From a virus (Duplodnaviria > Heunggongvirae > Uroviricota > Caudoviricetes), in IMG/VR virus record IMGVR_UViG_2617270950_000005, positions 1 to 13,143 of that record: a stretch of DNA of 13,143 nucleotides; one strand, 5' to 3'. Both the position numbers and the translations under genes were made by a program. The notes under the pieces were generated by a model, which saw only the letters and a program-made list of their open reading frames with translations, did no database searches and was not told where the DNA came from. Positions within the stretch are counted from its first letter, which is position 1, and each line of letters begins with the position of its first letter. Shown here one piece after another: positions 1 through 13,143 of the stretch.

Positions 1-1
1 A

Positions 2-667
2 CTTCTTAACATGCTGGATATTAAAGGAAAAATCATCACAACTGATGCGATGGGTTGCCAGAAAGATATTGCAGAGAAGATACAAAAACAGGGAGGTGAT
101 TATTTATTCGCGGTAAAAGGAAACCAGGGGCGGCTAAATAAAGCCTTTGAGGAAAAATTTCCGCTGAAAGAATTAAATAATCCAGCGCATGACAGTTACG
201 CAATGAGTGAAAAGAGTCACGGCAGAGAAGAAATCCGTCTTCATATTGTTTGCGATGTCCCTGATGAACTTATTGATTTCACGTTTGAATGGAAAGGGCT
301 GAAGAAATTATGCGTGGCAGTCTCCTTTCGGTCCATAATAGCAGAACAAAAGAAAGAGCTCGAAATGACGGTCAGATATTATATCAGTTCTGCTGATTTA
401 ACCGCAGAGAAGTTCGCCACAGCAATCCGAAACCACTGGCATGTGGAGAATAAGCTGCACTGGCGTCTGGACGTGGTAATGAATGAAGACGACTGCAAAA
501 TAAGAAGAGGAAATGCAGCAGAATTATTTTCAGGGATACGGCACATTGCTATTAATATTTTGACGAATGATAAGGTATTCAAGGCAGGGTTAAGACGTAA
601 GATGCGAAAAGCAGCCATGGACAGAAACTACCTGGCGTCAGTCCTTACGGGGAGCGGGCTTTCGTAA
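2..667 (+). CDS. ydcC: ISAs1-family (H-repeat-associated) transposase, C-terminal part; the gene starts upstream of the window
   Basis: Open frame runs from the window edge to TAA at 665-667. Translation (…[30 protein letters not shown]…[20 protein letters not shown]…) resembles Rhs-associated H-repeat / ISAs1 transposases. Its position upstream of pptA-yddH-nhoA matches the K-12 gene order as I recall it. Confidence 0.75.
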
Positions 668-766
668 TCTTGCCCTGGGCATTATTGTCGTATAAACGCT
701 TTACCGGACACATGACATTCACAATGTGTGTTAATTTTACTGACATCTTTCAAAAGGAGCGTAATC

Positions 767-1000
767 ATGCCGCACATCGACATTAAATGTTTTCCGCGTG
801 AACTGGACGAACAACAAAAAGCAGCACTTGCTGCAGATATTACCGACGTTATTATTCGTCATCTGAACAGTAAAGACAGTTCGATAAGCATTGCTCTACA
901 GCAGATTCAACCAGAATCTTGGCAAGCTATCTGGGATGCCGAAATCGCGCCCCAAATGGAGGCTTTGATAAAGAAACCTGGTTATAGCATGAATGCTTAA
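767..1000 (+). CDS. pptA: Tautomerase PptA (4-oxalocrotonate tautomerase family), 77 aa
   Basis: ATG at 767 lies 7 nt after AAGGAG. The protein begins [13 protein letters not shown], with the N-terminal Pro typical of the tautomerase superfamily. The track ORF 728-1000 starts at an upstream GTG that is probably not used. Confidence 0.85.
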
Positions 1001-1566
1001 CCCGCCGTAACACGCTTGCCGCTGGTAACAAACGTCCCAGCACCTAAATGATGCAACGTATTGAGCTTATCATCATCAAACTGCCAGCGGCCTTCGACAA
1101 ATACCCGTGCGTCTGCCGCTGCTGATACTACTTCGCCAAACAGCGTGTCGTATTCTTCTTGCGCAGAAGTCGCAGGTAGCAATCGACACTCCATCCACGC
1201 CAGACATTTTTCCTCGACCAGAGGCAAACCAAATACCGGGCCTCTCACAACCGGAATGCCATAGCAATTAAATTTATCTTCATCACGCCCCGACACACTT
1301 CCCACCGCCCACGTCCAGTTAGTTGCTGCAACGCCCGGGATAACGATGCCAAATTTACCGTTATGTTCAATCAACTCCCTGGTCCATGTCGATTTATCTA
1401 CCACAATCGCCACGCGTGGAGGTTCAAACTCCACCGGCATTGACCAGGCTGCAGCCATAATGTTACGCCGCTGGGATTGCTCATCGAAACTGGTGATCAA
1501 GACCGTTGGGCCATGATTTAACAGACGGCTGGCATGGTGTAATTCTATGGGGATGAATCGGCTCAT
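997..1566 (-). CDS. yddH: Flavin reductase-like domain protein YddH, 189 aa
   Basis: Minus-strand ORF. The internal Met ([26 protein letters not shown]…) gives the expected length. Convergent with pptA, and the two stop codons overlap. Confidence 0.8.
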
Positions 1567-1738
1567 GGTATCGCCTCGCGAAGAAGGTTTTTTTAAGCGT
1601 AGTCCGTAACGCAATAAGTAACGAAATTAACGGGATTGGCGATTTGCGAACGTGATGCATGTCCGCGATCGCACAAAATAGCCGGTGCGGCGTCTATTCC
1701 AGGTTATAAGTTGAGAAAACCACTAAGGGAAACGCCTG

Positions 1739-2584
1739 ATGACGCCCATTCTGAATCACTATTTTGCCCGTATTAACTGGTCGGGAGCTGCTGCGGTCAA
1801 TATTGATACGCTTCGTGCATTGCACCTGAAACACAATTGCACCATTCCGTTTGAAAACCTCGACGTTTTGCTGCCGAGGGAAATACAGCTTGATAATCAA
1901 TCGCCGGAAGAGAAACTGGTGATAGCCCGTCGTGGCGGTTACTGTTTTGAGCAGAATGGCGTGTTTGAGCGGGTGTTACGCGAGCTGGGGTTTAACGTTC
2001 GCAGCTTGTTAGGGCGCGTAGTGTTATCAAATCCGCCAGCATTACCGCCGCGCACCCATCGTTTGCTGTTGGTGGAACTGGAAGAGGAAAAATGGATTGC
2101 TGATGTCGGTTTCGGTGGGCAGACGCTAACCGCGCCGATTCGTTTAGTTTCCGATCTCGTGCAGACCACGCCACACGGAGAGTATCGGTTGTTGCAGGAG
2201 GGGGATGATTGGGTGTTGCAGTTTAATCATCATCAGCATTGGCAGTCGATGTACCGTTTTGATCTCTGCGAGCAGCAACAAAGCGATTATGTGATGGGCA
2301 ATTTCTGGTCGGCGCACTGGCCGCAGTCGCATTTTCGCCATCATTTGCTGATGTGCCGCCATTTGCCGGACGGCGGCAAGCTGACACTGACCAATTTTCA
2401 TTTTACCCATTATGAAAATGGGCACGCGGTGGAGCAGCGAAATCTACCGGATGTGGCGTCATTATATGCTGTGATGCAAGAACAGTTTGGTCTGGGCGTG
2501 GATGATGCGAAACATGGCTTTACCGTGGATGAGTTAGCGCTGGTGATGGCGGCGTTTGATACGCACCCGGAGGCGGGAAAATAA
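1739..2584 (+). CDS. nhoA: Arylamine N-acetyltransferase (N-hydroxyarylamine O-acetyltransferase), 281 aa
   Basis: 281-aa ORF preceded by AAGGGA. It carries the NAT-family catalytic Cys context (RRGGYCFEQN) and matches the expected gene order after yddH. Confidence 0.9.
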   Translation: MTPILNHYFARINWSGAAAVNIDTLRALHLKHNCTIPFENLDVLLPREIQLDNQSPEEKLVIARRGGYCFEQNGVFERVLRELGFNVRSLLGRVVLSNPPALPPRTHRLLLVELEEEKWIADVGFGGQTLTAPIRLVSDLVQTTPHGEYRLLQEGDDWVLQFNHHQHWQSMYRFDLCEQQQSDYVMGNFWSAHWPQSHFRHHLLMCRHLPDGGKLTLTNFHFTHYENGHAVEQRNLPDVASLYAVMQEQFGLGVDDAKHGFTVDELALVMAAFDTHPEAGK

Positions 2585-2595
2585 TTTATGTCAGG

Positions 2596-2630
2596 TTGCC
2601 GGATGCGGCGTAAACGCCTTATCCGGCATA
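2596..2630. repeat. REP (repetitive extragenic palindromic) element in the nhoA-yddE intergenic region
   Basis: GCCGGATGCGGCGTAAACGCCTTATCCGGC is the classic enterobacterial REP consensus shape. It is flanked by the inverted pair TGTCAGG (2589-2595) and CCTGACA (2650-2656). Confidence 0.6.
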
Positions 2631-2679
2631 CATTAGCCCGGTTGTAGACCTGACAGGCGAAGCGCATCAGACAACGGTT

Positions 2680-2865
2680 TCAGAGTTCAATTGCCCATTC
2701 GGCATGAAACAAAATCACCGCTGTGCCTGAAATGGTGACTTTTTCCGGTTGGTTATCACGAATTGTCACCGTCACTTCAATCATACCGTCACGCCCCAAT
2801 GCGCGCCCCTGATGGCCTTTAACACGCAACACGTTGCCATCGTGGGGCAATTGTAACCAGGTGAA
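2680..2865 (-). pseudogene. yddE: 3' remnant (C-terminal ~62 codons) of PhzF-family isomerase gene yddE, truncated by the prophage insertion
   Basis: Minus-strand frame ending at stop (TCA on plus strand, 2680-2682) translates to …FTWLQLPHDGNVLRVKGHQGRALGRDGMIEVTVTIRDNQPEKVTISGTAVILFHAEWAIEL. This has the G-x-I-x-V-x-V … G-x-A-V pattern of PhzF/YddE C-termini. The frame hits a stop at 2866-2868 where prophage-like sequence begins, with no start codon or N-terminal part. Confidence 0.6.
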
Positions 2866-3101
2866 TCATTTGATACCAACGAGGGTTTTAGTGAAAGGAG
2901 GTGAAATCACCTGTAAGATACTGAAATAAAACAGGTGATGTCTGGATGAGCGCTTAAAGTCTATTTGATATCGATTGTGCAATAATTAATCGTTTATTCT
3001 AAAATCGGCAAAACTTTTGATACTGCGATCTCAACTTTTTAAAGCGTTTAAAACTTCATTAAATCTATATGGCAACTAACATACGGGCCAGCCTCGCCAA
3101 A
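2866..3101. repeat. Putative prophage left-end (attL-like) region with repeated candidate transposase-binding motifs
   Basis: TTTGATAYY occurs three times (2869-2877, 2964-2972, 3016-3024), spaced 95 and 52 bp, similar to the L1/L2/L3 layout of Mu attL. A perfect palindrome AGGTGAAATCACCT lies at 2899-2912 and CAGGTGA recurs at 2932-2938. Confidence 0.35.
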
Positions 3102-3632
3102 CTAACCCGCTTTAGATTCTACCGGATTTGATTGCCTACTTGTCTCGGTTTTTTCCAAAATCTCTCTGACGCAATCGTCTGGCATATCTACAATCATCAA
3201 CGCAGCCAGGCGCTTCCTGCCTTCTAGTTGTAATAAATCCTGGTTTTCTTTATTCAGCAGTGTCAGAACCGTCTCCACACCTTTGCGAGCAAGGAGATTG
3301 GTTAACTGTTCTCGTTCGTCTTTCGTAAGGAATGAAAGCATCTGTGTAAGCTGATCTCCCTTATCACCAGAACAACCAAAATTACCATAAATACCAATAT
3401 CGTTTGGTAATTCACCCTTGCCCTCTTTAAGCCACTCAAGACTAACGCCTTCACTTTCAGAAATTCGTATAAGGATACTTTCTCTGGGGGCTGGTTGTGT
3501 TTGTCCTCCCTTGAAATAGCTGTTTAATGTGTTGATATTGATTCCCCACGCTCTGGCAGCTGCACTTCTTGAAGGGTAGCGCTTTGTAAGCATTCCAATA
3601 CGTTCAATAACAGGTTCTTTTCCCTGCGACAT
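3102..3632 (-). CDS. c: Mu-type repressor (c-like), about 176 aa
   Basis: Leftward ORF divergent from ner, the same position as Mu c. Start taken at ATG (CAT 3630-3632) with AGAGGT 6 nt upstream; the longer track ORF reaching 3707 is an unsupported N-terminal extension. N-terminal region (RIGMLTKRYPSRSAAARAWGININTLNSYFKGG) looks like an HTH. Confidence 0.65.
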   Translation of the reverse strand: MSQGKEPVIERIGMLTKRYPSRSAAARAWGININTLNSYFKGGQTQPAPRESILIRISESEGVSLEWLKEGKGELPNDIGIYGNFGCSGDKGDQLTQMLSFLTKDEREQLTNLLARKGVETVLTLLNKENQDLLQLEGRKRLAALMIVDMPDDCVREILEKTETSRQSNPVESKAG

Positions 3633-3707
3633 AAAGATACCTCTTGGTGCTTTTCTAAGGAAAGGTTTCTTTCTATTTATCCAATTGAAAAATAAGGATA
3701 AAAGCAA

Positions 3708-3822
3708 AAATTAGCCAAAATACCAAAAATACCTTGATTTGGTATTTTTGGTGATGCATTATTTACCCGTACAGATATCCGCACGAATATCCGCGCGGGT
3801 AACTTTTTAGAATAGAGGAAGT
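3708..3822. promoter_or_regulatory. Divergent early promoter/operator region between repressor and ner
   Basis: CCAAAATACC at 3715-3724. Inverted repeat CCAAAAATACC (3723-3733) / GGTATTTTTGG (3741-3751). Tandem 12-bp direct repeats GATATCCGCACG (3774-3785) and AATATCCGCGCG (3786-3797) just upstream of ner. TTGATT at 3734-3739 is a possible -35. Confidence 0.55.
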
Positions 3823-4071
3823 ATGAGTAGAAGAGAAGTTTCAGATCACGATTGGCCGCCTGAAATCATCAAGGCGCGCTTACACATGGCTGGCTTATCA
3901 CTGCGCTCTTTATCTTTAAAGGCTGGTTACAGCAGGGATTCGCTGAAAAGCGTATTACGTACTCCTTGCCGACCGTATCAGCAAATAATTGCTGATGCTC
4001 TTGGGGTATCACCTGAAGAAATCTGGCCCAGTCGATACCAGGTTAAGAGCTATATGAGAAAGGCGTCATGA
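3823..4071 (+). CDS. ner: Ner-like DNA-binding transcriptional regulator, 82 aa
   Basis: Protein has Ner/Nlp family hallmarks (…QIIADALGVSPEEIWPSRYQ…). AGAGGAAG RBS. Sits immediately upstream of the transposase gene as in Mu. Confidence 0.85.
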   Translation: MSRREVSDHDWPPEIIKARLHMAGLSLRSLSLKAGYSRDSLKSVLRTPCRPYQQIIADALGVSPEEIWPSRYQVKSYMRKAS

Positions 4072-4072
4072 T

Positions 4073-6163
4073 ATGTATGTCATTGCAAAAGAACTGATTG
4101 GCGCGCCCGGAATGCCTGCTACAACAAAAGGTATTCGCCAGGCATTACAACGTTACGTACAAGGGAAAAGCTGTTGTTCCCGTCGTCGCTCAGGCTCTAA
4201 AGCAACTGAATACAGCATCGACTGTTTACCTGAAGTGACGCAGCAGGCATTACGTGAACGCTACGCCCTGCAACTGATGACGCAAAAAGCCGATGAATCA
4301 CCGGCTCCGGTGGTGACAAAGGCCAGACGCTCACCTGCCGTGGTTGATGCGGTGGAGGCATATCGCGGATCACCCCAACTGATGGTCGAACGCCTCAATG
4401 CCCTGACTGAAAACCAACGTAAAGTGGCAGAGGCACGAATAGCGATCGTCAGCGAGGTGCTGAAAATCGCGCAACAACCCGGCTTTAGTTGCGCTAAGGC
4501 TATCCGGTTCCTCGTTAACAGCCTGGCACGATCACAACTGGACGAGCGCATTGTGGCAATGGTTGAGACGGCGAACGCCAAAAAGGGAAACAGCCGCGCG
4601 TTGAGTGAAATCACGCTGAAACGCTGGATTGCGGCCTTTAACAAGGCACAGAACGCCGCTGAACGCCTGCTTTTACTGGCACCGGGTAAACGCCAGGAAA
4701 TAAAAGCCGAAGATATTAACTGGCTGCCCGAATTTCTGGCGCAGTATCGCCAGTCAAACGGCCGACCAATGACCGAGGCTTACGAGGATTTTGTTGCTGA
4801 ATGGCAGCACCGGCACGCTGATGAGCCTTATATGCTCGATATCATGCCCTCTTATGACACCATTCGCCGCGCAATGAAGAAACTGCCGGAAGTGGTGAAA
4901 CAAAAAGGCCGGGTAACTGGCAGTGAATACCGTCAGCTTGAGGGATTCACGCGCCGCGACTGGTCCAGAATGCCGGTGAATTATGTCTGGATTGGTGACG
5001 GTCACGGCATGAAGCTGAAATGCGCGCACCCGGTTCACGGGCGGCCATTCGCACCGGAAGTGACCTTTGTTATCGACGGTGGCACGCGCTTTGTGGTGGG
5101 CTGGAGTCTTGACCTGGCTGAAAATGTTTTCGCCGTAGCCGGTGCCATACAGCACGGTATTCGCCATCATGGCAAACCGTTTCTGTATTACTCGGATAAT
5201 GGCTCCGGGGAAACCGCCGACGTCCTGGATAAGGAGATTGTGGGGATACTGCCACGACTGGGGATTAATCACCCGACAGGGATTGCCGGTAATCCGCAGG
5301 GACGGGGCATTATCGAACGGCTTAACCGCACATTACCGATGCGCATAGCCCGTAAATACCGCACCTATTTCGGGAAAGGAGCAGATCGCGAGACGTTACG
5401 TAAAACCAACCGCGATTTACGCTCGGCATTCAGTGCCCTGCAACAGGGCAAACGGCTGAACGCCCGGCAGCAGTCAGCGATGCGTGATTTACCGTCCTGG
5501 TCTGAACTGATTGATGCCATTCGTGACGGTGTTGAGTGGTACAACAACCGGCCGCACGATGAATTACCCATGAAGCCGAACGGTAAACATTACAGCCCGG
5601 CGGAGTTCAGAAAAAAACGCCTGGCGGAAGAGGACACGGAAATTGAATGGCTGTCCGATGTTGAACTGCGGGATATGTTCCGGCCGATGGTGGAGCGCCC
5701 TGTAAGACGCTGTGAAATACGCTGGCTGAATAATATTTACTACGCGCCCGAGCTGCGTGACGAGCATGGCCGTAAGGTACTTATCAGCTATGACATTCAT
5801 GATGCCGAACGAATTACCGTGCGCCGCCCGGATGGCAGCGTGATTTGCGAGGCGGTATGGGACGGCAATAAACGCGAAGCCTTCCCTGTCAGCGCGGAAT
5901 ACTACAAACAGCAGCAGCGCCTTAAAGGCATGCGTAAACGCGCAGAGGAAAAAATCCGTGATGCCGAGGATGAGGTTGTCAACGTGCTGGAGCACAAGCC
6001 GCAGGAGCCCTGGCTGGAAAACATATACCGCCCTGTGGGTAATACGGTGACCGTTCAGCAACCGGTCGCTGACGATGAACCTGATGAAGAATACGAGCGT
6101 AATTTCCAGCGGGGATTGCAACTGCTCGAAGCGAAATTAAAAGAAAGTGATCCGCTGGCCTGA
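4073..6163 (+). CDS. A: MuA-like DDE transposase, 696 aa
   Basis: Large ORF with candidate DDE residues in WIGDGHGMK, YYSDNGSG and GIIERLNRT contexts. Size and position match Mu transposase A. Confidence 0.9.
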   Translation: MYVIAKELIGAPGMPATTKGIRQALQRYVQGKSCCSRRRSGSKATEYSIDCLPEVTQQALRERYALQLMTQKADESPAPVVTKARRSPAVVDAVEAYRGSPQLMVERLNALTENQRKVAEARIAIVSEVLKIAQQPGFSCAKAIRFLVNSLARSQLDERIVAMVETANAKKGNSRALSEITLKRWIAAFNKAQNAAERLLLLAPGKRQEIKAEDINWLPEFLAQYRQSNGRPMTEAYEDFVAEWQHRHADEPYMLDIMPSYDTIRRAMKKLPEVVKQKGRVTGSEYRQLEGFTRRDWSRMPVNYVWIGDGHGMKLKCAHPVHGRPFAPEVTFVIDGGTRFVVGWSLDLAENVFAVAGAIQHGIRHHGKPFLYYSDNGSGETADVLDKEIVGILPRLGINHPTGIAGNPQGRGIIERLNRTLPMRIARKYRTYFGKGADRETLRKTNRDLRSAFSALQQGKRLNARQQSAMRDLPSWSELIDAIRDGVEWYNNRPHDELPMKPNGKHYSPAEFRKKRLAEEDTEIEWLSDVELRDMFRPMVERPVRRCEIRWLNNIYYAPELRDEHGRKVLISYDIHDAERITVRRPDGSVICEAVWDGNKREAFPVSAEYYKQQQRLKGMRKRAEEKIRDAEDEVVNVLEHKPQEPWLENIYRPVGNTVTVQQPVADDEPDEEYERNFQRGLQLLEAKLKESDPLA

Positions 6164-6171
6164 AATAAAAA

Positions 6172-6199
6172 AATAACCCGAGGGGTGACTCAGGTTATT
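6172..6199 (+). other. Stem-loop in the A-B intergenic region
   Basis: AATAACCCGAG (6172-6182) pairs with CTCAGGTTATT (6189-6199) at 10 of 11 positions across a 6-nt loop, 9 nt after the A stop codon. Confidence 0.25.
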
Positions 6200-6245
6200 T
6201 GAGGTTTCAGTCTCGGAGAATGCTGTCTCAAGCGAGGTGAATAAT

Positions 6246-7178
6246 ATGACCGATATTAACGATGTAATCAAGACCATTGATGAACTTATTGATGGCGGCG
6301 TACTGACGCAGTATGCCATCGCCAGAGAGGCGGGAATTTCCGACGGCACATTATCGGCTTTCCGTAAGGGAAAATATAAAGGCGATAACGCTGCTGTGGC
6401 TGCTTCCCTGCGCTCCTGGTATGAGAACTGGAATAAACAAAGCGCACTGCCGGAACCGCCGCAGTTTGTGGAAACTCAGACAGTCCAGGAGCTGCGCGCA
6501 CTGTTTCAGGCGGTTCGCCTGATGGGCTGTATTAACGTTATTGTGGGCGTACCGGGTGTGGGTAAAACGGCCACTGCCCGTAATTACTGCCAGGAGCAAC
6601 CAAACACCTGGATGATCACCCTGTCACCCGCGCACTCCAGCGTCACGGAGTGTCTGCTGGAGCTGGCCGATGCGCTGGGGATTGATTACACCCGCGCGAA
6701 CAAAGGGGCATTATCCCGCGCCATCCGCCGTCGCCTGATGGGAACGCGTGGACTGGTGATTGTGGATGAGGCGGATCATCTTGGTATTGACGGTCTGGAG
6801 CAACTCCGGGCAATTCAGGACGCCACGGGGATCGGGATGGTGCTTATTGGTAACCCGCGCGGATTGTTTAAAGGTGGACGCCGCGCCTTTGATGATTTAT
6901 CGCGCCTGTTCAGCCGTCTTGCCCGTACAAAACAACTTCGCAAGGCCAAAAAGGCGGATGTGCTGGCCATTGCCATGGCGTGGGGGATCAGTGGTGAGGC
7001 CGAGCTGGCCGTCATGCAGGCTATCGCTGAAAAGCCGGGAGCGTTACGCGTTCTGACACATACGCTTAACCAGGCGTGGCTCACCGCCAGCGGTGAAGGC
7101 GCGGCGCTGACAGAAAAACATATTAATGCGGCCTTTAAAGAGGTTTATACCAACCCTGAATTACTCTCACAGGTGTGA
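6246..7178 (+). CDS. B: MuB-like AAA+ ATPase (transposition target-DNA activator), about 310 aa
   Basis: Walker A GVPGVGKT and Walker B-like LVIVDEAD. N-terminal HTH-like region. Start moved to ATG 6246 just after GAGGTGA; the track start at 6237 is a GTG inside the RBS. Confidence 0.9.
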   Translation: MTDINDVIKTIDELIDGGVLTQYAIAREAGISDGTLSAFRKGKYKGDNAAVAASLRSWYENWNKQSALPEPPQFVETQTVQELRALFQAVRLMGCINVIVGVPGVGKTATARNYCQEQPNTWMITLSPAHSSVTECLLELADALGIDYTRANKGALSRAIRRRLMGTRGLVIVDEADHLGIDGLEQLRAIQDATGIGMVLIGNPRGLFKGGRRAFDDLSRLFSRLARTKQLRKAKKADVLAIAMAWGISGEAELAVMQAIAEKPGALRVLTHTLNQAWLTASGEGAALTEKHINAAFKEVYTNPELLSQV

Positions 7179-7180
7179 TT

Positions 7181-7402
7181 ATGGCGGTATTTAATATTCC
7201 TGATATTTACGGACGCTTTTACCTGGTTAATTTCGATAACGTGAAGGTGATTTCACTGGCCGAAAATAAAGAATGTGGCGATTTACTTTTTGAATTTAAT
7301 GACCGCACACGAATGGTGATATCTGCCGGACTTGATCGCGAAGGTGCGACAGAAGTTTACAGCGGAATATGCCGTTCTGTTGGTGCGAAACAAGTCAGCT
7401 AA
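7181..7402 (+). CDS. Hypothetical small protein (73 aa) in the position of Mu kil
   Basis: ORF starts right after the B stop and shares the early operon orientation. No recognisable motif. Confidence 0.5.
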   Translation: MAVFNIPDIYGRFYLVNFDNVKVISLAENKECGDLLFEFNDRTRMVISAGLDREGATEVYSGICRSVGAKQVS

Positions 7403-7414
7403 ATGAGGTGTTAT

Positions 7415-7669
7415 ATGAATATGCAATCCTGCGGTAACAAAATGAATTTATTCGACTCCCTGAACAGCGCGCGCCGTCTGACCGAACTTGCCGGTGCGGT
7501 ACTGGAACGCAGTAAGCGCTATCCGCAACGTTTTGCACTGAAAACCACGCCGCCGGTAGGCAACGTGCAGGGAACCGGTGAAATTGAAATCACCATACAG
7601 ACCAACGGCCTGCGCCGCCGTGTGAAGGCCACCCGCATCAGCGGCTGCACGGTTTACTGGGAGGTGTGA
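7415..7669 (+). CDS. Hypothetical protein, 84 aa
   Basis: ATG 7415 preceded by GAGGTG at 7406-7411; the track start at 7403 overlaps that RBS. Packed head to tail with its neighbours. Confidence 0.5.
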   Translation: MNMQSCGNKMNLFDSLNSARRLTELAGAVLERSKRYPQRFALKTTPPVGNVQGTGEIEITIQTNGLRRRVKATRISGCTVYWEV

Positions 7670-7670
7670 G

Positions 7671-7952
7671 GTGAAAAAAAATCTCATTGCATGGGCGTGG
7701 TCGAGTGGTCTTATTGAGTTTGGTTACGTCCTGCCGGAAGGTGCATTGCCGATAGTTGCCGGAAAGCCTGCCACGGTACGGCATGTGATTGAGGTTATGG
7801 CGCGTCATGGACGTGATGAACAGGAGCAGTTACTGGTTCCGGGGATACCGGAAGCGGTGACGGAGGAAGAAGCCTTTAATGCCATGATTCGGTTCTGCCG
7901 TGAGGTCAGACGCCGGGTCAGTTATCCAAACAGAACGAGGACCAGAGGATGA
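7671..7952 (+). CDS. Hypothetical protein, 93 aa (GTG start)
   Basis: GTG 7671 follows GGGAGGTGTGAGG, 2 nt after the previous stop. No recognisable motif. Confidence 0.5.
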   Translation: MKKNLIAWAWSSGLIEFGYVLPEGALPIVAGKPATVRHVIEVMARHGRDEQEQLLVPGIPEAVTEEEAFNAMIRFCREVRRRVSYPNRTRTRG

Positions 7953-8221
7953 GTAAAGTCGTACACATTATTTTCGAATATAAGGAGCACGTTATCCATA
8001 AAAACGCTGATGGAACAGTGCGCATGGGGGTAAGTCTGGACATACGTTCAACCGGGATAAAGCAGAAAGGTGATGGACCCGCCATGATTTTTGGGGTGGT
8101 TATGCTCGCGGAAAGCAGAAACTTCGCAGAGCTTGTGGCAATGAAAGCCAGTGCATTCATGAAAGACAGGGGCATGGCTTCCGGGGTTATTAACGGTAAT
8201 GAATTTAATCAGCAGGGGTAA
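7949..8221 (+). CDS. Hypothetical protein, 90 aa; first of two tandem paralogs
   Basis: ATGA overlap with the upstream ORF. N-terminus MSKVVHIIFEYKEHVIH resembles the next ORF's N-terminus. Confidence 0.55.
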   Translation: MSKVVHIIFEYKEHVIHKNADGTVRMGVSLDIRSTGIKQKGDGPAMIFGVVMLAESRNFAELVAMKASAFMKDRGMASGVINGNEFNQQG

Positions 8222-8225
8222 TTCC

Positions 8226-8519
8226 ATGAGCAAAGTACGCGTTATTTTTGAATTTAACCACGTAATGCATGAAGTAAAGCCAGCCGGTAATGATAGTCAG
8301 GAAATCACGGAGGGGGTTACTGCCACTGTAAAAATCGAACGTGATACGGAGAACAGACCGACAGGCCCATGTGATGTTTATGCGCAAATTCTTAAATATC
8401 ACAGCCCCACAATTATTCAGTTTCTGACAGATGAACTTCAGGGTTCCATGCAGGCTCTGGGGGTGAAAAGCAGCATTGAGCGCCGCTCCTTGCAGAACGC
8501 ACCAGATACATTGCAATAA
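8226..8519 (+). CDS. Hypothetical protein, 97 aa; second tandem paralog
   Basis: Start at ATG 8226 (MSKVRVIFEFNHVMH…); the track's upstream start at 8199 overlaps the preceding ORF. Shares the N-terminal motif of the previous ORF. Confidence 0.55.
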   Translation: MSKVRVIFEFNHVMHEVKPAGNDSQEITEGVTATVKIERDTENRPTGPCDVYAQILKYHSPTIIQFLTDELQGSMQALGVKSSIERRSLQNAPDTLQ

Positions 8520-8530
8520 GGAAAAACAAA

Positions 8531-9061
8531 ATGGCAAAACGCGTTACAAAATTAAAGGCTGTAGCCGAGGCCGCACCGCAGACCCGCGAAGAAGTCAGCC
8601 GCGATATCCGCACCCTGGGCGATATTCAGCGAGAGGCGCTGCGCCTGGAAACGGCGATGAATGATGAAGTGGCAGAAATCACCGCCCGTTATACGCCGCA
8701 GATTGAAAATCTTAAAAAGCAAATCAAAGTGCTTTTTAAAGGGATTCAGGACTGGTGTAAAACCAACCGTGATGAGCTGACGAACGGCGGCAAAACCAAA
8801 ACTGCCAATCTGACCACCGGAACGGTGTCATGGCGGCTGGGAACGCCATCATGCAGCGTCAGCCGTGATGTGGAAGGTGTGATTGACACGCTGCGCCGTA
8901 TGGGGCTTGAGCGATTCATCCGCACGAAAGAGGAAGTGAACAAGGAAGCCGTCCTGGCGGAGCCGGATGCGGTGAAAGGCATTGCCGGTATAAAGGTGAA
9001 TAAAGGCGCTGAAAGTTTTTATGTCGAGCCTTTTGAACAGGATGCCGGACTGAATAAATAA
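8531..9061 (+). CDS. gam: Gam-like host-nuclease inhibitor (Ku-like DNA-end-binding protein), 176 aa
   Basis: Strong resemblance along its length to Mu Gam as recalled (…RLETAMNDEVAEI…NRDELTNGGKTKTANLTTGTVSWRL…RFIRTKEEVNKEAVL…EPFEQDAGL). Confidence 0.9.
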   Translation: MAKRVTKLKAVAEAAPQTREEVSRDIRTLGDIQREALRLETAMNDEVAEITARYTPQIENLKKQIKVLFKGIQDWCKTNRDELTNGGKTKTANLTTGTVSWRLGTPSCSVSRDVEGVIDTLRRMGLERFIRTKEEVNKEAVLAEPDAVKGIAGIKVNKGAESFYVEPFEQDAGLNK

Positions 9062-9158
9062 CACCGCATTAATTATTTAAATATCACTTCATTTTAATTA
9101 TGGCGCTCGCGTCAGGGGACTGCTTGCGCCTGAAAGCTGAAAATAAGGAATCGGAAAT

Positions 9159-9701
9159 ATGGCATATTTTTATTTCAAATTAGACCGTGTGCAGACAAAT
9201 AAATATTTCACCAAATATCAACAGGCTGTTTTACCGCTACGCAACAGTATTCTTCGGACATTACTGAAAAATACAGGCGCTGCCGGATTGCGCTTAAAGC
9301 CGTTCGCCATGGACAGAATCAGTGAGTTTTATTTTGCCGGTGCTCTGCCTGCGGGCTGGCGTAAGCGCGATGATGTGGCTTTTATCGGTGGCGGACAGTG
9401 CTTTATAGCCAGACCTGATGAGTCATGCCCTGAAGGACCGGCGATTGCCGCAATGATTGAAGCCGCTGAACGCGAGTTAAGAAAGCGTCCTGATTTCCTT
9501 GTCTGGCTCTGTGAAAAGCTGGGGGTAATGAGAATCCCCTCCATGTTTAACACGGACTCCTGGTGGACCCCTTCGTTCTCCCGTGATGCCCTGTGCGTGG
9601 TGTTTAAAGTGGGCGCTTATGGCAGGGGAATAAAAGGATGTATTCCTGAAGAATGCCAGGAAATTAAACATTCTGAATATGTGGCGCTGACGGAGGAATA
9701 A
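9159..9701 (+). CDS. Hypothetical protein, 180 aa (accessory ORF A)
   Basis: ORF follows AAGGA and the only sizeable intergenic gap (97 bp) in the early operon. AT-rich 5' end. No recognisable motif. Confidence 0.55.
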   Translation: MAYFYFKLDRVQTNKYFTKYQQAVLPLRNSILRTLLKNTGAAGLRLKPFAMDRISEFYFAGALPAGWRKRDDVAFIGGGQCFIARPDESCPEGPAIAAMIEAAERELRKRPDFLVWLCEKLGVMRIPSMFNTDSWWTPSFSRDALCVVFKVGAYGRGIKGCIPEECQEIKHSEYVALTEE

Positions 9702-9704
9702 TTC

Positions 9705-10238
9705 ATGATTGATGCAAAAGTGCTTGAAGGGGTTAAAAACTGGCTGAGTATTTACGGGCGTCTGACCTGCGGCGTACTGGCTGAAAAAATGAATATGCCG
9801 CCATCCTCCATGGTTTATTTTCTGCGTGATGCGGTTGATGCCGGGGTGCTGACGGAATGTAACGGTTTTTATGATATTCCGCGTTCCCGCCCGGTGCAGC
9901 CGATTCGTCGCAAATGCAGACAGGAATCTGCGGCTGATGATGTTCAGTGGTGCAGCTTCAGAAAATCCCTGCCATGGATTGAGGGGCATGATATTCCGTC
10001 GATGGCGTGGGAATTTGCTCAGGGCGTTCTGACCTGTGAAACCGTTTATGTGGTGGCTGAAGTTGATGAGCAGGCCATGAAAGAAGGCGTGCCCCAGTTT
10101 GTGATGGCGTATATCGACATTCGCCTGGGTGTCATCATCTGCGGTTTAAGCGGCTGGAATATCACCGCGCGTGTTCTGCGCTACCTGATTGTTGACCGGA
10201 CAGCAGCGCCTGCCGGGATATCTGCGGAGGTGGCGTAA
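9705..10238 (+). CDS. Hypothetical protein, 177 aa, with possible N-terminal winged-helix DNA-binding domain (accessory ORF B)
   Basis: 3-nt gap from ORF A. N-terminal 60 aa (…GVKNWLSIYGRLTCGVLAEKMNMPPSSMVYFLRDAVDAGVLTE) has a wHTH-like pattern. C-terminal half has no known motif. Confidence 0.55.
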   Translation: MIDAKVLEGVKNWLSIYGRLTCGVLAEKMNMPPSSMVYFLRDAVDAGVLTECNGFYDIPRSRPVQPIRRKCRQESAADDVQWCSFRKSLPWIEGHDIPSMAWEFAQGVLTCETVYVVAEVDEQAMKEGVPQFVMAYIDIRLGVIICGLSGWNITARVLRYLIVDRTAAPAGISAEVA

Positions 10239-10753
10239 TGTTCTTTAAAACATCAAACCCTTCCGCGCTGGCTGCGTGGCAAAAATACCAGCAGGACTGC
10301 CAGACGGTAAAAGATGAGGCGAAACGCCTTGAGGCCGTGCTGAATGTTGCGTGCCGGTCGGTATTTGAATTCAGTATCAGTGGTTTTTGTTTTAAGGGAC
10401 TGCGTTTTACGGAGGACAAATATCCTTTTCATCGCGACTTATGGCGAAAACCGACTGCGTCGAATGGCTGGAGCTGCACACCGCGCACATCACGTATCCC
10501 TAAAGCCCTGCGTGTTGCCTCTGATGAACTGAACAGTCTGTGGCGTGAATATTCGCCCGTCACGTATGCCAGAACCGATGCCCTGTTGTTCTGGCTGGGT
10601 ATTGACTTCTCAGCAATATTGTATGGTCCCGTGAACTGGTTCTGCGTTGACAATGTGATTTATCTTCAGTGCGAAGATGATTCCGCAAAACGGAAAATGA
10701 CCGAAATTCTGTCTGATGAGTTTTATGCTGCCGAAAAGCGAGTCAGGGGGTGA
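10238..10753 (+). CDS. Hypothetical protein, 171 aa (accessory ORF C)
   Basis: TAATG stop/start overlap with ORF B indicates translational coupling. No recognisable motif. Confidence 0.55.
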   Translation: MFFKTSNPSALAAWQKYQQDCQTVKDEAKRLEAVLNVACRSVFEFSISGFCFKGLRFTEDKYPFHRDLWRKPTASNGWSCTPRTSRIPKALRVASDELNSLWREYSPVTYARTDALLFWLGIDFSAILYGPVNWFCVDNVIYLQCEDDSAKRKMTEILSDEFYAAEKRVRG

Positions 10754-10756
10754 TGT

Positions 10757-11308
10757 ATGATGATTTTACAACACATGGGGCGAAAAGGTCGTACACCCGC
10801 TCATGTCCGCGCGTGGACACCTGAAGAAGATGCGCTACTGATTGCGCTTTATTCATCCACCCCGGTTAAGGATATTGCTGCCAGAATAAAAAGAACTGTC
10901 TGGGCTGTATATAACCGGACTGGTGTATTGCGCAGTTCATACCCGGAGTTACTGAAATATAAACACCCAAGATTTACACCTGATGAAGATAAGTTTATTC
11001 GAAAAAATGCCAGAACAATGACCTGCCAGCAAATGGGAGAATATCTCGGACGTAATAAAGATTCTGTCAGATGTCGGGCAGGAATGATTGGTGCTGGATT
11101 AACAAAGTGCGGAGAGTTACGCCCCGGCACGCGCATATCTGATGATGATGTACGTCTTATACGTGCGCTGCGTGATTCCGATTACCCACGCCGTCTGTCA
11201 TTCCGGGAAATTGGCGAAAAGTTTGGAATATCTGAACATTCTGCTCACGCAGTTTATTACCGTCGCCGGACTGCCGAGGACGCTGTATTACGGGAGTTAA
11301 CGCCATGA
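10757..11308 (+). CDS. Hypothetical DNA-binding protein with three HTH-like repeats (Myb/SANT-like W-TPEED motifs), 183 aa (accessory ORF D)
   Basis: Internal repeats RAWTPEEDALLIALY…, PRFTPDEDKFIRKN…, and ISDDDVRLIRALRD…LSFREIGEKFGIS…. RBS AGGGGG before ATG 10757. Confidence 0.55.
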   Translation: MMILQHMGRKGRTPAHVRAWTPEEDALLIALYSSTPVKDIAARIKRTVWAVYNRTGVLRSSYPELLKYKHPRFTPDEDKFIRKNARTMTCQQMGEYLGRNKDSVRCRAGMIGAGLTKCGELRPGTRISDDDVRLIRALRDSDYPRRLSFREIGEKFGISEHSAHAVYYRRRTAEDAVLRELTP

Positions 11309-11634
11309 TAACGACCTTATTTGTTGAATCAGATGAACCTCTTGTGTGTGCCGCCGGAATGCCGCTCTGTGGCGGAACGCTGACCGGTGTTTATTTCGGG
11401 GATTTACGCGGTTATCCCTGGCATTCACTGAATGATGCTTTCCCACCTGATATGGAGGCTGTCGTGCTGATTGTTCAGTATGGTCACCGTCAGGAGCTGC
11501 GCATCGGCCATATGGGGTATGAAGGCTTTTTTGTTGATGAAGAAACCGGAGCCTGCCTTGAAGATGAAGACGGACAGGTGACGCACTGGTGTCATATTTC
11601 GGCTTTACCGGAATTACGGGAGGTGAATGCGTGA
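11305..11634 (+). CDS. DUF551-like phage protein, 109 aa (accessory ORF E)
   Basis: ATGA overlap with ORF D. C-terminal …DGQVTHWCHISALPE resembles the DUF551 signature (…THW.PLPEPP) common in enterobacterial prophage accessory proteins. Confidence 0.5.
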   Translation: MITTLFVESDEPLVCAAGMPLCGGTLTGVYFGDLRGYPWHSLNDAFPPDMEAVVLIVQYGHRQELRIGHMGYEGFFVDEETGACLEDEDGQVTHWCHISALPELREVNA

Positions 11635-11981
11635 GAAGTTATATTGATAATGAAAAGCTGGAGACAATAAGCGACTGTCTTAGCTTGCTGGCAAAAATCA
11701 AAGAAACTATTGAAGAGATTAAATTTCAGCTTGAATACGCACCATGTGGCGATGATGCATGGCGTAATGCTGCCAGAAAAGCACTGGCTGTCTTTCAGAA
11801 ACAACGCCGGGCTGTTGAATACCGCCTTGCTGTATTGCGCCAGGAGGAAAAGGAAAGAAATATAAGACGTCATGAACGCGTTAATGATTTCCTTGTTCGT
11901 GAATTAAAAGAGCGCGTGCCGGAGTCGGTATTTTTTGAATGTGAGGCTATAGCCCGTAGCAAAGCACTGGAAACAGATTAA
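11631..11981 (+). CDS. Hypothetical coiled-coil protein, about 116 aa (accessory ORF F)
   Basis: GTG 11631 lies 5 nt after GGGAGGTG and overlaps the ORF E stop (GTGA). The alternative ATG 11589 would overlap ORF E by 45 bp. Charged heptad-like sequence (…LAVLRQEEKERNIRRHERVNDFLVRELKER…). Confidence 0.45.
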   Translation: MRSYIDNEKLETISDCLSLLAKIKETIEEIKFQLEYAPCGDDAWRNAARKALAVFQKQRRAVEYRLAVLRQEEKERNIRRHERVNDFLVRELKERVPESVFFECEAIARSKALETD

Positions 11982-11996
11982 GCAGGCAGGTGAATA

Positions 11997-12305
11997 ATGA
12001 GTATTGAATTAAGATCGTCTTATGAATATCGCAAAATCCTTATCGCCGGAGGCATGAAACCGGAAGATGCAGAGAAATTCGTTTCTTTTATGGATAAAGA
12101 ATGTGACAAGCGGGATATGCCAGAAATTATTATGGATGACATGATTCTGGATTCAGCCGTGGCGTTAAGTCCGTTATGGATTGTGCATACTCTTGCGGAA
12201 ATAGCTAAAAGAAGTGACAAGCAGGCGGCTGTCGCCGCCCTGCGATTACTGGCTGAATTAAGTTGTTCAGTCAATCCCAATACGTTCTTTGACGAACCTG
12301 GTTAA
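11997..12305 (+). CDS. Hypothetical acidic protein, 102 aa (accessory ORF G)
   Basis: ATG preceded by AGGTGA. AT-rich. Its 3' end overlaps the convergent minus-strand ORF by 39 bp. Confidence 0.5.
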   Translation: MSIELRSSYEYRKILIAGGMKPEDAEKFVSFMDKECDKRDMPEIIMDDMILDSAVALSPLWIVHTLAEIAKRSDKQAAVAALRLLAELSCSVNPNTFFDEPG

Positions 12306-12677
12306 CATTGATTTGGTAACTTCTTTAATTAGATCAAATGGTGCGTCTGTAAACTCCTTTTTGATTCTTTCAAGGATTGGTTTTTTTCTCAGGGCGTTAG
12401 CTAAATCATGCCCCTGCTGGGTAAGCATAATGGGCGTGTTTCTGAAACCAACGCCCAGAGAATGGAAAAAGAAACCAATATATTTGGGTGTTTCTGACTG
12501 CATATCACCATTAACAATTGAGCCATTATCAGCGAGAAGCATAAGATGAAAAACTTTTTTATCCTTTTCCTCTCCTTCTGCCTCAGCCATGCCCAGATCC
12601 TGTAGTGTAAGGAAAGGTGTTTCAGCATCCTGAAAAGTTGTGAGAATACTTAATACTTCATCGTAATCTATTTTCAT
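12267..12677 (-). CDS. Hypothetical protein, 136 aa; lone minus-strand, AT-rich moron inside the rightward early operon
   Basis: Clean 136-codon ORF antisense to the early operon, with AAAGGT about 7 nt upstream of its ATG. Visibly more AT-rich than flanking prophage DNA. No recognisable motif. Confidence 0.55.
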   Translation of the reverse strand: MKIDYDEVLSILTTFQDAETPFLTLQDLGMAEAEGEEKDKKVFHLMLLADNGSIVNGDMQSETPKYIGFFFHSLGVGFRNTPIMLTQQGHDLANALRKKPILERIKKEFTDAPFDLIKEVTKSMLTRFVKERIGID

Positions 12678-12698
12678 ATCGATACCTTTAGTTTTATC

Positions 12699-12728
12699 CG
12701 GGCGGCGTTGCCATGCCGCCTGTTGTTA
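12699..12728 (+). terminator. Possible GC-rich stem-loop followed by a U-rich tract
   Basis: GGCGGC (12701-12706) pairs with GCCGCC (12715-12720) across an 8-nt loop, followed by TGTTGTTA. It lies between the minus-strand moron start and the gemA-like ORF. Confidence 0.25.
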
Positions 12729-12741
12729 CGGAGACACGATA

Positions 12742-12945
12742 ATGAATCGCGCTTCCCTGATTACCTTAATACATGTCGCAAAACGCGATCTACAGCTTGA
12801 CCATGAGACCTACACATCCGTACTACTGGCAGCCACCGGCAAACCCAGTTGCCGGGATATGTCACCGGATGAGTTATCCCGCGTGCTGGATGTTTTCAAA
12901 AAACGCGGTTTTAAAGTGCGTCAGAAGCCGGTTACCGGAATATGA
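12742..12945 (+). CDS. gemA: GemA-like (Mu gp16 / DUF1018 family) protein, short form of 67 aa
   Basis: MNRASLITLIHVAKRDLQLDHETYTSVLLAATGKPSCRDMSPDELSRVLDVFKKRGF matches the conserved N-terminal GemA/DUF1018 pattern as recalled. The ORF then stops. Confidence 0.55.
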   Translation: MNRASLITLIHVAKRDLQLDHETYTSVLLAATGKPSCRDMSPDELSRVLDVFKKRGFKVRQKPVTGI

Positions 12946-13082
12946 ATGTGCTGGATGATATTCTCACGCCGCTGCGTATTTATGAAGGCGGTGCGCTGGA
13001 ATGTATTCTGAACCGTTATAAGCCTGCATGGCAGACGTTTATTTACGTTTATGCAAACAGCCATGAAGAGGAGACTATTTAA
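12942..13082 (+). CDS. Small ORF (46 aa) coupled to the gemA-like ORF by an ATGA overlap; possibly the frameshifted continuation of gemA
   Basis: ATG 12942 overlaps the TGA of the gemA-like ORF; ends at TAA 13080-13082. Below the 60-aa cutoff of the ORF track. No motif. Confidence 0.3.
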   Translation: MNVLDDILTPLRIYEGGALECILNRYKPAWQTFIYVYANSHEEETI

Positions 13083-13143
13083 TGTTTCATGTTGATAATA
13101 ATTCCGGCGTGGCGAATATGCCTGCGCTGGCACCGGCGCAGAG
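13082..13143 (+). CDS. 5' end of a further early-operon ORF that runs off the window
   Basis: TAATG overlap with the previous ORF. Begins MFHVDNNSGVANMPALAPAQ with no stop before the window end. Confidence 0.3.
   Translation, partial: MFHVDNNSGVANMPALAPAQ

Follow-up and report, generated by a model that had tools for sequence, protein, structure and literature searches.

We analyzed a window of 13,143 nucleotides (nt), positions 1 to 13,143 of IMG/VR virus record IMGVR_UViG_2617270950_000005, in which E. coli chromosome adjoins the left portion of a Mu-like prophage of the Sp18 type. A gene at positions 10757 to 11308, on the plus strand of the prophage's early operon, encodes a 183-residue protein consisting of three helix-turn-helix (HTH) modules (here called the target). 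In the explanation that we modestly favor, the target is an accessory early-operon protein that binds duplex DNA via its three linked modules and is the temperate counterpart of T5 D5 and Mu gp9. It is a member of an already catalogued family of phage proteins that is publicly annotated as DNA binding. What is new is an island of divergence between alleles of the gene, focused on the third helix of each module.

The target consists of three linked HTH modules

The open reading frame (ORF) lies exactly where the first-pass annotation of the window, made from the sequence alone, had placed it, with its ATG at 10757 and its TGA at 11306 to 11308. That annotation had also described two Myb/SANT-like repeats of the form W/F-TP-E/D-ED, and both were found: W20-T-P-E-E-D starts at nt 10814 and F73-T-P-D-E-D at nt 10973. 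A degenerate third motif, I127-S-D-D-D, starts at nt 11135, and the spacings between successive motifs are 53 and 54 residues. The coding sequence (CDS) is divided as follows, with entropies given per alignment column of the family.

10757 to 11308, plus strand: CDS of the 183-residue three-module HTH protein, stop codon included (from the ORF list)
10757 to 10813, plus strand: N-terminal basic arm, residues 1 to 19 (family consensus, M.L..MG.PG..P.H.R)
10814 to 10942, plus strand: module R1, residues 20 to 62, with helix 1 in WTPEEDALL (22 to 31), helix 2 (37 to 44), and helix 3 (48 to 61)
10898 to 10939, plus strand: R1 helix 3, the presumed recognition helix, hypervariable except for A50, V51, R54, and L58 (entropy, 2.23 bits)
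10973 to 11092, plus strand: module R2, residues 73 to 112, with helix 1 in FTPDEDKFI (75 to 84), helix 2 (90 to 97), and helix 3 (101 to 110)
11057 to 11086, plus strand: R2 helix 3, hypervariable (entropy, 2.47 bits)
11093 to 11134, plus strand: R2-R3 linker, residues 113 to 126, with a K-C-G motif in which K117 and G119 are invariant in 48 family sequences
11135 to 11266, plus strand: module R3, residues 127 to 170, with helix 1 in ISDDDVRLI (129 to 140), helix 2 (149 to 156), and helix 3 (160 to 169)
11234 to 11263, plus strand: R3 helix 3, hypervariable except for Y167 (entropy, 2.44 bits)
11267 to 11305, plus strand: conserved C-terminal helix, residues 171 to 183 (consensus, TA.DA..RELLP; modeled helix, 173 to 181; entropy, 1.16 bits)

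The repeats were tested with sub-profiles taken from an alignment of the 48 family sequences (A2), which were compared by hhalign with 40 column shuffles as a control. R1 matched R2 with a score of 71.7 and a probability of 98.7% (shuffle maximum, 14.4), and R2 matched R3 with a score of 35.2 and a probability of 93.6% (shuffle maximum, 16.1). The match of R1 to R3 was marginal (score, 24.4, versus a shuffle maximum of 20.9), and the repeat signal within the single sequence was weak (R1-R2 z = 3, a value reached by 5 of 500 shuffles). Direct and inverted repeats were sought at the DNA level within the gene and none were found, indicating that the internal triplication is ancient.

An AlphaFold2 (AF2) model built from the same alignment had a mean predicted local distance difference test (pLDDT) score of 87.1 and contained three three-helix bundles and a C-terminal helix, with zero strands. 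Helices 2 and 3 form the HTH within the three-helix bundle, which is the Myb/SANT-type fold, and the structure prediction thus bore out the repeat fold that had been put forward for checking. The assignment of R1 is based on the AF2 secondary structure, a Pfam Myb_DNA-binding match on residues 19 to 33, and alignment with c-Myb R2. That of R2 is based on hhalign with R1, the AF2 model, and alignment with c-Myb R3. The N-terminal arm was modeled at low confidence (mean pLDDT, 56 and 71 for the first two 10-residue blocks), and residues 1 to 21 have a mean column entropy of 0.91 bits, the lowest among the segments.

R3 is a diverged copy in which a 5-residue insertion separates helices 1 and 2. 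The first-pass annotation had recognized a third HTH-like segment here and had likened it to sigma-70 region 4. The HTH assignment stands, on the basis of the AF2 model and hhalign with R2, and the sigma-70 likeness does not: Pfam Sigma70_r4 (PF04545) matched R3 at an E value of 0.14 and 12 bits, compared with a cutoff of 24.1, which is a generic likeness only. R3 represents a third, diverged copy of the module and is no homologue of sigma region 4. Its other Pfam matches were also weak (HTH_AsnC-type, 7e-4; HTH_10, 1.5e-3).

The target is strongly basic. Its isoelectric point (pI) is 10.0, with 35 lysines and arginines versus 22 aspartates and glutamates, and all modules carry a net positive charge.

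The target shares a family with T5 D5 and Mu gp9

Residues 5 to 182 of the target matched positions 82 to 256 of the PHROG 323 profile ("transcriptional regulator, D5-like") at an E value of 5.8e-52 and 178 bits. Two proteins of well-known phages fall in the same PHROG, T5 D5 (T5.118; E = 1.2e-71) and Mu gp9 (E8, 99 residues; E = 5.2e-29). T5 D5 aligns with the target family over three modules (target residues 17 to 168 and D5 residues 71 to 232; hhalign probability, 97.1%; 144 columns) and was also found with a plain hidden Markov model of the family (E = 2.7e-13). Mu gp9 aligns with R2 plus R3 at an hhalign probability of 98%.

The target CDS is 100% nucleotide identical to the gene of WP_000973019.1, an annotated CDS in E. 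coli DETEC-S792. RefSeq labels that identical protein a "SANT/Myb-like DNA-binding domain-containing protein," and it labels products of the other E. coli allele, described below, as an "AsnC family protein" or a "DNA-binding protein."

A protein of this type had been called unusual for a Mu early operon in the first reading of the window. This premise is wrong, since Mu itself encodes the two-module gp9 of PHROG 323; moreover, 232 of 5426 complete E. coli genomes contain the three-module form, as do many Salmonella, Klebsiella, and Citrobacter prophages. Novelty relative to Mu is limited to the number of modules (three versus two) and to position (after gp12, not before gam).

The RefSeq record of T5 describes D5 as a DNA-binding protein that is required for DNA replication and late transcription and is involved in early shut-off. 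PMC12630848, citing McCorquodale et al. 1979, presents D5 as a double-stranded DNA-binding protein that affects replication and late expression. The target resembles D5 in its PHROG, in the alignment over three modules, and in being an early gene beside DNA replication functions. It differs in that D5 has 255 residues, about 70 of which form an additional N-terminal region, and identity over the aligned columns is about 28%. In addition, D5 comes from a virulent phage, where it is described as required, whereas the target is encoded in the nonessential part of the early operon of a temperate Mu-like phage. A D5 homologue was detected among the major virion-associated proteins of the T5-like Yersinia phage phiR2-01 (PMC8624392), unlike in T5, which is odd for an early DNA binder.

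Mu gp9 is likewise an early-operon gene product of a transposable phage. It has two modules rather than three, lacking the conserved N-terminal arm, R1, and the K-C-G linker, and its gene is upstream of gam, whereas the target gene is downstream of the gp12 homologue. A gp9 homologue was sought at the Mu position in the window prophage and none was found.

Among cellular proteins, c-Myb R2R3 was matched by the family profile across both repeats (E = 2e-8). Pfam Myb_DNA-binding (PF00249) matched the target at 25.2 bits, compared with a cutoff of 24.4, on residues 19 to 33 only (profile positions 3 to 17 of 46). The target shares with tandem Myb/SANT proteins such as c-Myb R2R3 the three-helix modules, a period of about 52 residues, and a W/F-T-x-E-E-D motif that opens helix 1. 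The Myb/SANT core contains three regularly spaced tryptophans or aromatics. The target keeps only the first signature tryptophan (W20, which is invariant, with F73 at the equivalent place in R2), and the second and third positions are aliphatic. Its loop between helix 1 and helix 2 is shorter than in Myb, its origin is a bacterial virus, and its third module is far more diverged.

The fold is that of a GcrA-type N-terminal DNA-binding domain, and GcrA of Caulobacter (PDB 5yiu) was the top structural match. In GcrA, a single DNA-binding domain accompanies a sigma-70-interacting domain, whereas the target has three modules, which fill the chain, and no C-terminal sigma-70-interacting domain; Pfam GcrA (PF07750) was unmatched at an E value of at most 1. 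GcrA itself reads methylated promoters.

Membership in several other families was rejected. The target resembles AsnC/Lrp proteins only through the HTH_AsnC-type match on R3 (E = 7e-4; 19.8 bits, below the cutoff of 27). It does not have the C-terminal RAM (alpha-beta) effector domain, AsnC_trans_reg (PF01037) was unmatched at an E value of at most 1, and the model is all helical without beta strands. Given the missing RAM domain and the all-helical fold, the name "AsnC family," which RefSeq applies to many homologues, is a misnomer. The Mor/C family (PF08765) was also rejected: the target has no Mor match, and a separate Mor-family gene lies downstream in all Mu-like relatives that extend far enough. 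A single-sequence phmmer search of PDB sequences gave only a weak homeodomain match (E = 0.087), and an NCBIfam scan of the target returned no family.

Divergence between alleles is focused on the third helices

The window was compared with two E. coli prophages whose genes flanking the target are 94 to 97% identical to those of the window. The target itself was only 79% identical at the nucleotide level and 72% identical at the protein level. Synonymous divergence was 0.58 to 0.65 in the target, compared with 0.10 to 0.19 in the flanks. This raised synonymous divergence indicates that the gene was replaced through recombination with a more distant allele. Of 233 matching E. coli records, 29 were at least 90% identical to the window allele, 204 were in the 60 to 80% band (77 to 80% among the listed records of that band), and none fell between. 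E. coli carries two allele classes.

The divergence island is the CDS alone. A covarying cis site was sought beside the gene and none was found, since the one divergent patch, at 10600 to 10700, does not track the allele. This patch, at the 3' end of the gp12-like gene, is 80% identical even in comparison with a relative carrying the same target allele and is private to the window or its lineage. Allele 1 was found together with two different repressor regions, which places the target outside the immunity module. The repressor region of the window (3024 to 3663) has zero detectable nucleotide homology with that of the otherwise 95%-identical prophage of E. coli DETEC-S792 (L013), which is an immunity-region swap.

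Selection on the gene was assessed from the ratio of nonsynonymous to synonymous substitution rates (dN/dS). For the whole gene, dN/dS was 0.25 to 0.28, indicating purifying selection, and the 183-codon frame was intact in all 25 unique E. coli alleles; by these measures the gene is functional. We considered whether the target could be a decaying, functionless ORF in a defective prophage, with its repeats a relic and its variability a product of relaxed constraint. The window prophage is internally deleted and not viable, and the dN/dS of the target exceeds that of gam, gp11, and gp12 (0.09 to 0.16), as such decay would have it. However, the frame is also intact in the intact prophages, dN/dS is 0.05 in helices 1 and 2, and the family is kept across four phage types, as far as T5. 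We consider this explanation highly improbable, and we reject a pseudogene reading, which is contradicted by the selection pattern.

Variation was distributed unevenly over the protein. The lowest dN/dS, 0.05, was that of helices 1 and 2; loops and tails had 0.25, and the third helices reached 0.8 to 0.9, with pairwise ratios that never exceeded 1. Residues differing between alleles made up 21 of 34 positions in helix 3 versus 5 of 56 in helices 1 and 2 (Fisher P = 1e-7), counts that are dominated by the two allele classes. Family-wide column entropy was likewise 2.36 bits in helix 3 versus 1.35 bits (P = 1e-5). Among the 25 unique alleles, 14 sites had nonsynonymous diversity greater than the gene-wide synonymous diversity; 10 of these were in helix 3 (V48, G56, and S61 of R1; K101, R105, C106, and M110 of R2; H161, H164, and A165 of R3), and three more directly followed helix 3 of R2. 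The conserved helix-3 positions (A50, V51, R54, and L58; V104 and A108; Y167) are spaced as one helical face. Conservation was highest in the N-terminal arm, R3 helices 1 and 2 (entropy of about 1.0), the C-terminal helix, and the linker motif K117/G119.

Modules of the Myb, homeodomain, and GcrA types use helix 3 for recognition, and the presumed reading surface is thus what diversifies in the target, although exposed helices vary more in any protein. Strong purifying selection acts on the scaffold, which consists of helices 1 and 2, the N-terminal arm, and the C-terminal helix. A frozen scaffold with fast, exposed helix-3 faces that are swapped as whole-gene alleles suggests that binding specificity is either lineage specific or loosely constrained.

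The family occurs in the early operons of four phage types

When the family profile was run in a word-indexed search, 225 relatives were obtained, and those with a named source were nearly all from Salmonella, E. coli, Klebsiella, and Citrobacter, with more than 100 clusters at 90% identity in Salmonella alone. An exhaustive search returned 8061 proteins at an E value of at most 1e-3, many of which are long proteins bearing module arrays, and BFVD contains many uncharacterized phage proteins of similar build. The arrays of the module of about 50 residues reach 10 matched stretches in proteins of 300 to 1340 residues (P0124, P0126, P0131, and P0161). One array is fused to a helicase (ResIII/Helicase_C), suggesting a general DNA-tracking repeat.

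A scan of IMG/VR yielded 77 loci, which were sorted by marker searches. About 44 are Mu-like, with GemA and one Mor/C-family gene downstream wherever the contig extends far enough. About 27 are P2-like, preceded by integrase and Dam methyltransferase genes and followed, 0 to 2 kb downstream on the same strand, by gpA; in several of these, the stop codon of the homologue overlaps the gpA start. Four loci are of another type, and the one examined (L075) is lambdoid, with the order cI-like, YdaT, O, P, DUF1627, homologue, nin-type genes, and C5 methylase. In T5, D5 is located between the ligase gene and the helicase, primase, and polymerase genes.

Each phage has one copy, and in the Mu-like, P2-like, and lambdoid loci and in T5 it is always in the early operon. 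Neighboring genes vary among the phage types, and no obligate partner gene is apparent. Replication genes adjoin the homologue in T5 and in the P2-like and lambdoid phages. Early operons are rich in replication genes, however, so this closeness is suggestive but weak evidence. Early operons of Mu-like, P2-like, and lambdoid prophages from E. coli and Salmonella thus contain the family, those of O157-type strains included.

Genes for DNA methyltransferases are repeatedly found close to family members. In the P2-like loci (L056 to L086), one of the Dam type is upstream; loci L005 to L007 (6649 to 7614) are among those with a DNA methyltransferase nearby, and the C5 methylase of the lambdoid locus L075 (12257 to 14307) is 1.7 kb downstream. 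In the mycobacteriophage matches (H4 to H17), R1-R2-like modules coincided with genes whose annotation is DNA methylase or HNH endonuclease. These associations may be coincidental, since phage early regions often carry methylases.

Only one Mor/C-family gene is present in the intact E. coli relatives, located between the genes for GemA and lysozyme, whereas Mu has both Mor and C. The single gene was seen in L001 (15743 to 17320), L013 (12597 to 14176), and the IMG/VR loci L020 to L055, and Mu C and Mor queries matched the same gene. It had been proposed to check whether the target accompanies or replaces regulators of this type; it occurs alongside Mor rather than in its place, since every Mu-like relative whose contig extends far enough has a Mor-family gene downstream.

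Possible roles of the target

The first-pass annotation had suggested a sequence-specific DNA binder, possibly one that regulates host or middle genes or a mimic occupying host promoters, roles that are speculative. A DNA-binding role is the most reasonable prediction: from the fold, the basic charge, and the homology to T5 D5, we infer that the target binds DNA, and we infer its mode of binding and its biological role in the same way. If the explanation that we favor is correct, the modules would be tandem tri-helical HTH units of the Myb/SANT, GcrA DNA-binding domain, or homeodomain-like type that were born by ancient internal triplication. After induction, the protein would be translated from the early transcript. 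The modules would insert their third helices at successive major-groove positions, as in c-Myb R2R3 and the Tc3/paired bipartite domains, and the conserved basic N-terminal arm and the K-C-G linker may add further contacts. The outcome would be modulated replication or transposition and expression timing, rather than a Mor/C-type activator role.

Several points weigh against this explanation. The relative placement of the modules is undefined in the AF2 model (predicted template modeling score, 0.58), and a whole-chain Foldseek search of the PDB found nothing below an E value of 0.03. Transfer of function from D5 is weak, since that protein is remote and has the additional N-terminal region. 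SANT-type modules are able to bind proteins instead of DNA, and temperate-phage early operons contain mostly replication and accessory genes. A hypervariable recognition helix is unlike the expectation for a binder of a conserved cis site, and no covarying noncoding site adjoining the gene was found. Literature searches gave no experimental datum on the target protein or on Mu gp9, and only secondary citations were found on Mu gp9/E8 function, phage Myb-like proteins, and D5 biochemistry.

Another possibility, to which we give some weight while doubting it, is that the target is a sequence-specific transcription factor, in line with the first-pass annotation. The three modules would then read an asymmetric site of about 15 to 20 bp in phage or host promoters and repress or activate genes, for example, host genes in lytic growth or those of the early-to-middle switch, and the alleles would recognize different sites. 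Tandem modules like those of Myb R2R3 are classic sequence-specific readers, and the PHROG family carries the label "transcription regulation." The most variable residues (W49, N53, and G56/V57 and their equivalents) align with K128, E132, and N136 in helix 3 of c-Myb R2, which are reportedly base contacting. The single Mor/C-family gene of the intact relatives, compared with two in Mu, would leave room for another regulator. However, the allele is exchanged as a bare CDS with no linked noncoding segment and occurs with different immunity regions, so that a phage-borne cognate site would be uncoupled from it. The family is also found in four unrelated phage types with unrelated promoters, and the description of its characterized relative, T5 D5, is that of a general DNA binder.

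The target could instead act on proteins, as a SANT-like adaptor or a GcrA-like RNA polymerase cofactor that engages sigma-70, a nucleoid protein, or a defense sensor; in a variant of this idea, the modules themselves are sensed by a host defense, and the diversification of helix 3 reflects an arms race. Fast surface patches on a rigid scaffold (helix-3 dN/dS of 0.8 to 0.9 versus 0.05) suit this possibility, as do the bimodal E. coli alleles, the many Salmonella clusters, and the position of the gene, which has moron-like genes as neighbors in the accessory, "semi-essential" section of the early operon. GcrA, the top structural match, is said to act with sigma-70. Set against these points, the counterpart of the GcrA sigma-interacting domain is absent, with three HTH modules using the whole chain, the pairwise helix-3 dN/dS does not rise above 1, and the strong positive charge suits nucleic acid binding. 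PADLOC models run against the target and six neighboring ORFs matched no defense system. We regard a protein-binding role as quite unlikely.

More speculatively, and with little expectation that it is right, the target may be a swappable, fast-diversifying "reading head" particular to each lineage, which either marks the phage's own DNA or methylation state or presents an arms-race surface toward a factor of the host or a rival phage. Reading of a methylation state is suggested by the recurrent DNA methyltransferase neighbors and the GcrA-like fold. If this were true, the gene would be a determinant of interphage competition or immunity evasion rather than a housekeeping regulator.

Between the two natural alleles of E. 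coli, differences are nearly confined to the presumed recognition helices, in prophages that are otherwise about 95% identical, and the alleles offer an experimental handle. The pair could reveal whether such proteins read particular DNA sequences and what the T5 D5 class does mechanistically.

Gene and prophage setting

Two features adjoin the target CDS.

10741 to 10746, plus strand: Shine-Dalgarno-like AGGGGG, 10 nt 5' of the ATG (read from the sequence)
11305 to 11634, plus strand: downstream 109-residue ORF (PHROG 6925, function unassigned), whose ATG overlaps the target stop as ATGA (11305 to 11308)

The overlap of stop and start suggests that the target and the 109-residue ORF are translationally coupled. 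This ORF is not a conserved partner elsewhere, the neighbors being different in Salmonella Mu-like, P2-like, and lambdoid contexts. Promoter-like and terminator-like sites were sought beside the target gene and none were found, and the gene is therefore read as part of the early operon. The GC content of the target is not atypical (47% versus 49%). With ordinary GC content and no flanking promoter- or terminator-like sites, there is no sign of an independent moron cassette.

The host flank spans positions 1 to approximately 2851 and carries an ISAs1-type transposase fragment and genes for a tautomerase, a flavin reductase, and an arylamine N-acetyltransferase. The left prophage end is at 2852 (TGTAACC...). 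The left part of the prophage contains, in order, a repressor gene (3102 to 3707, minus strand), a ner-like gene, and genes for MuA and MuB, followed by small early ORFs (one of them Kil-like), Gam (8531 to 9061), a 180-residue ORF, a gp11-like gene (Pfam Gp11_C), and a gp12-like gene. The target comes next, followed by three small ORFs, a minus-strand DUF2513 gene, and a truncated GemA gene. In relatives, the same prophage occupies other chromosomal sites, as expected of a transposable phage.

The window prophage is internally deleted. In the region 12742 to 13143, its GemA-like ORF ends after 67 residues and homology with intact relatives stops at 12938; the sequence beyond, from 12939 to 13143, matches a YmfQ (Mu gp48-like) gene at its 3' end together with the start of a tail fiber gene. 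As a result of the deletion, Mor, the lysis genes, and most morphogenesis genes are missing, and the prophage cannot be viable.

Two other genes of the prophage stood out. The 180-residue ORF between gam and the gp11-like gene (9159 to 9701; PHROG 2260, of unknown function) had a dN/dS of 0.28 to 0.44, compared with 0.09 to 0.16 for its neighbors. The DUF2513 gene (12267 to 12677, minus strand) runs opposite to the early operon, has a GC content of 38.7% versus 49% for the prophage, overlaps the end of a 102-residue ORF, and stands where Mu has gp15; it resembles a moron.

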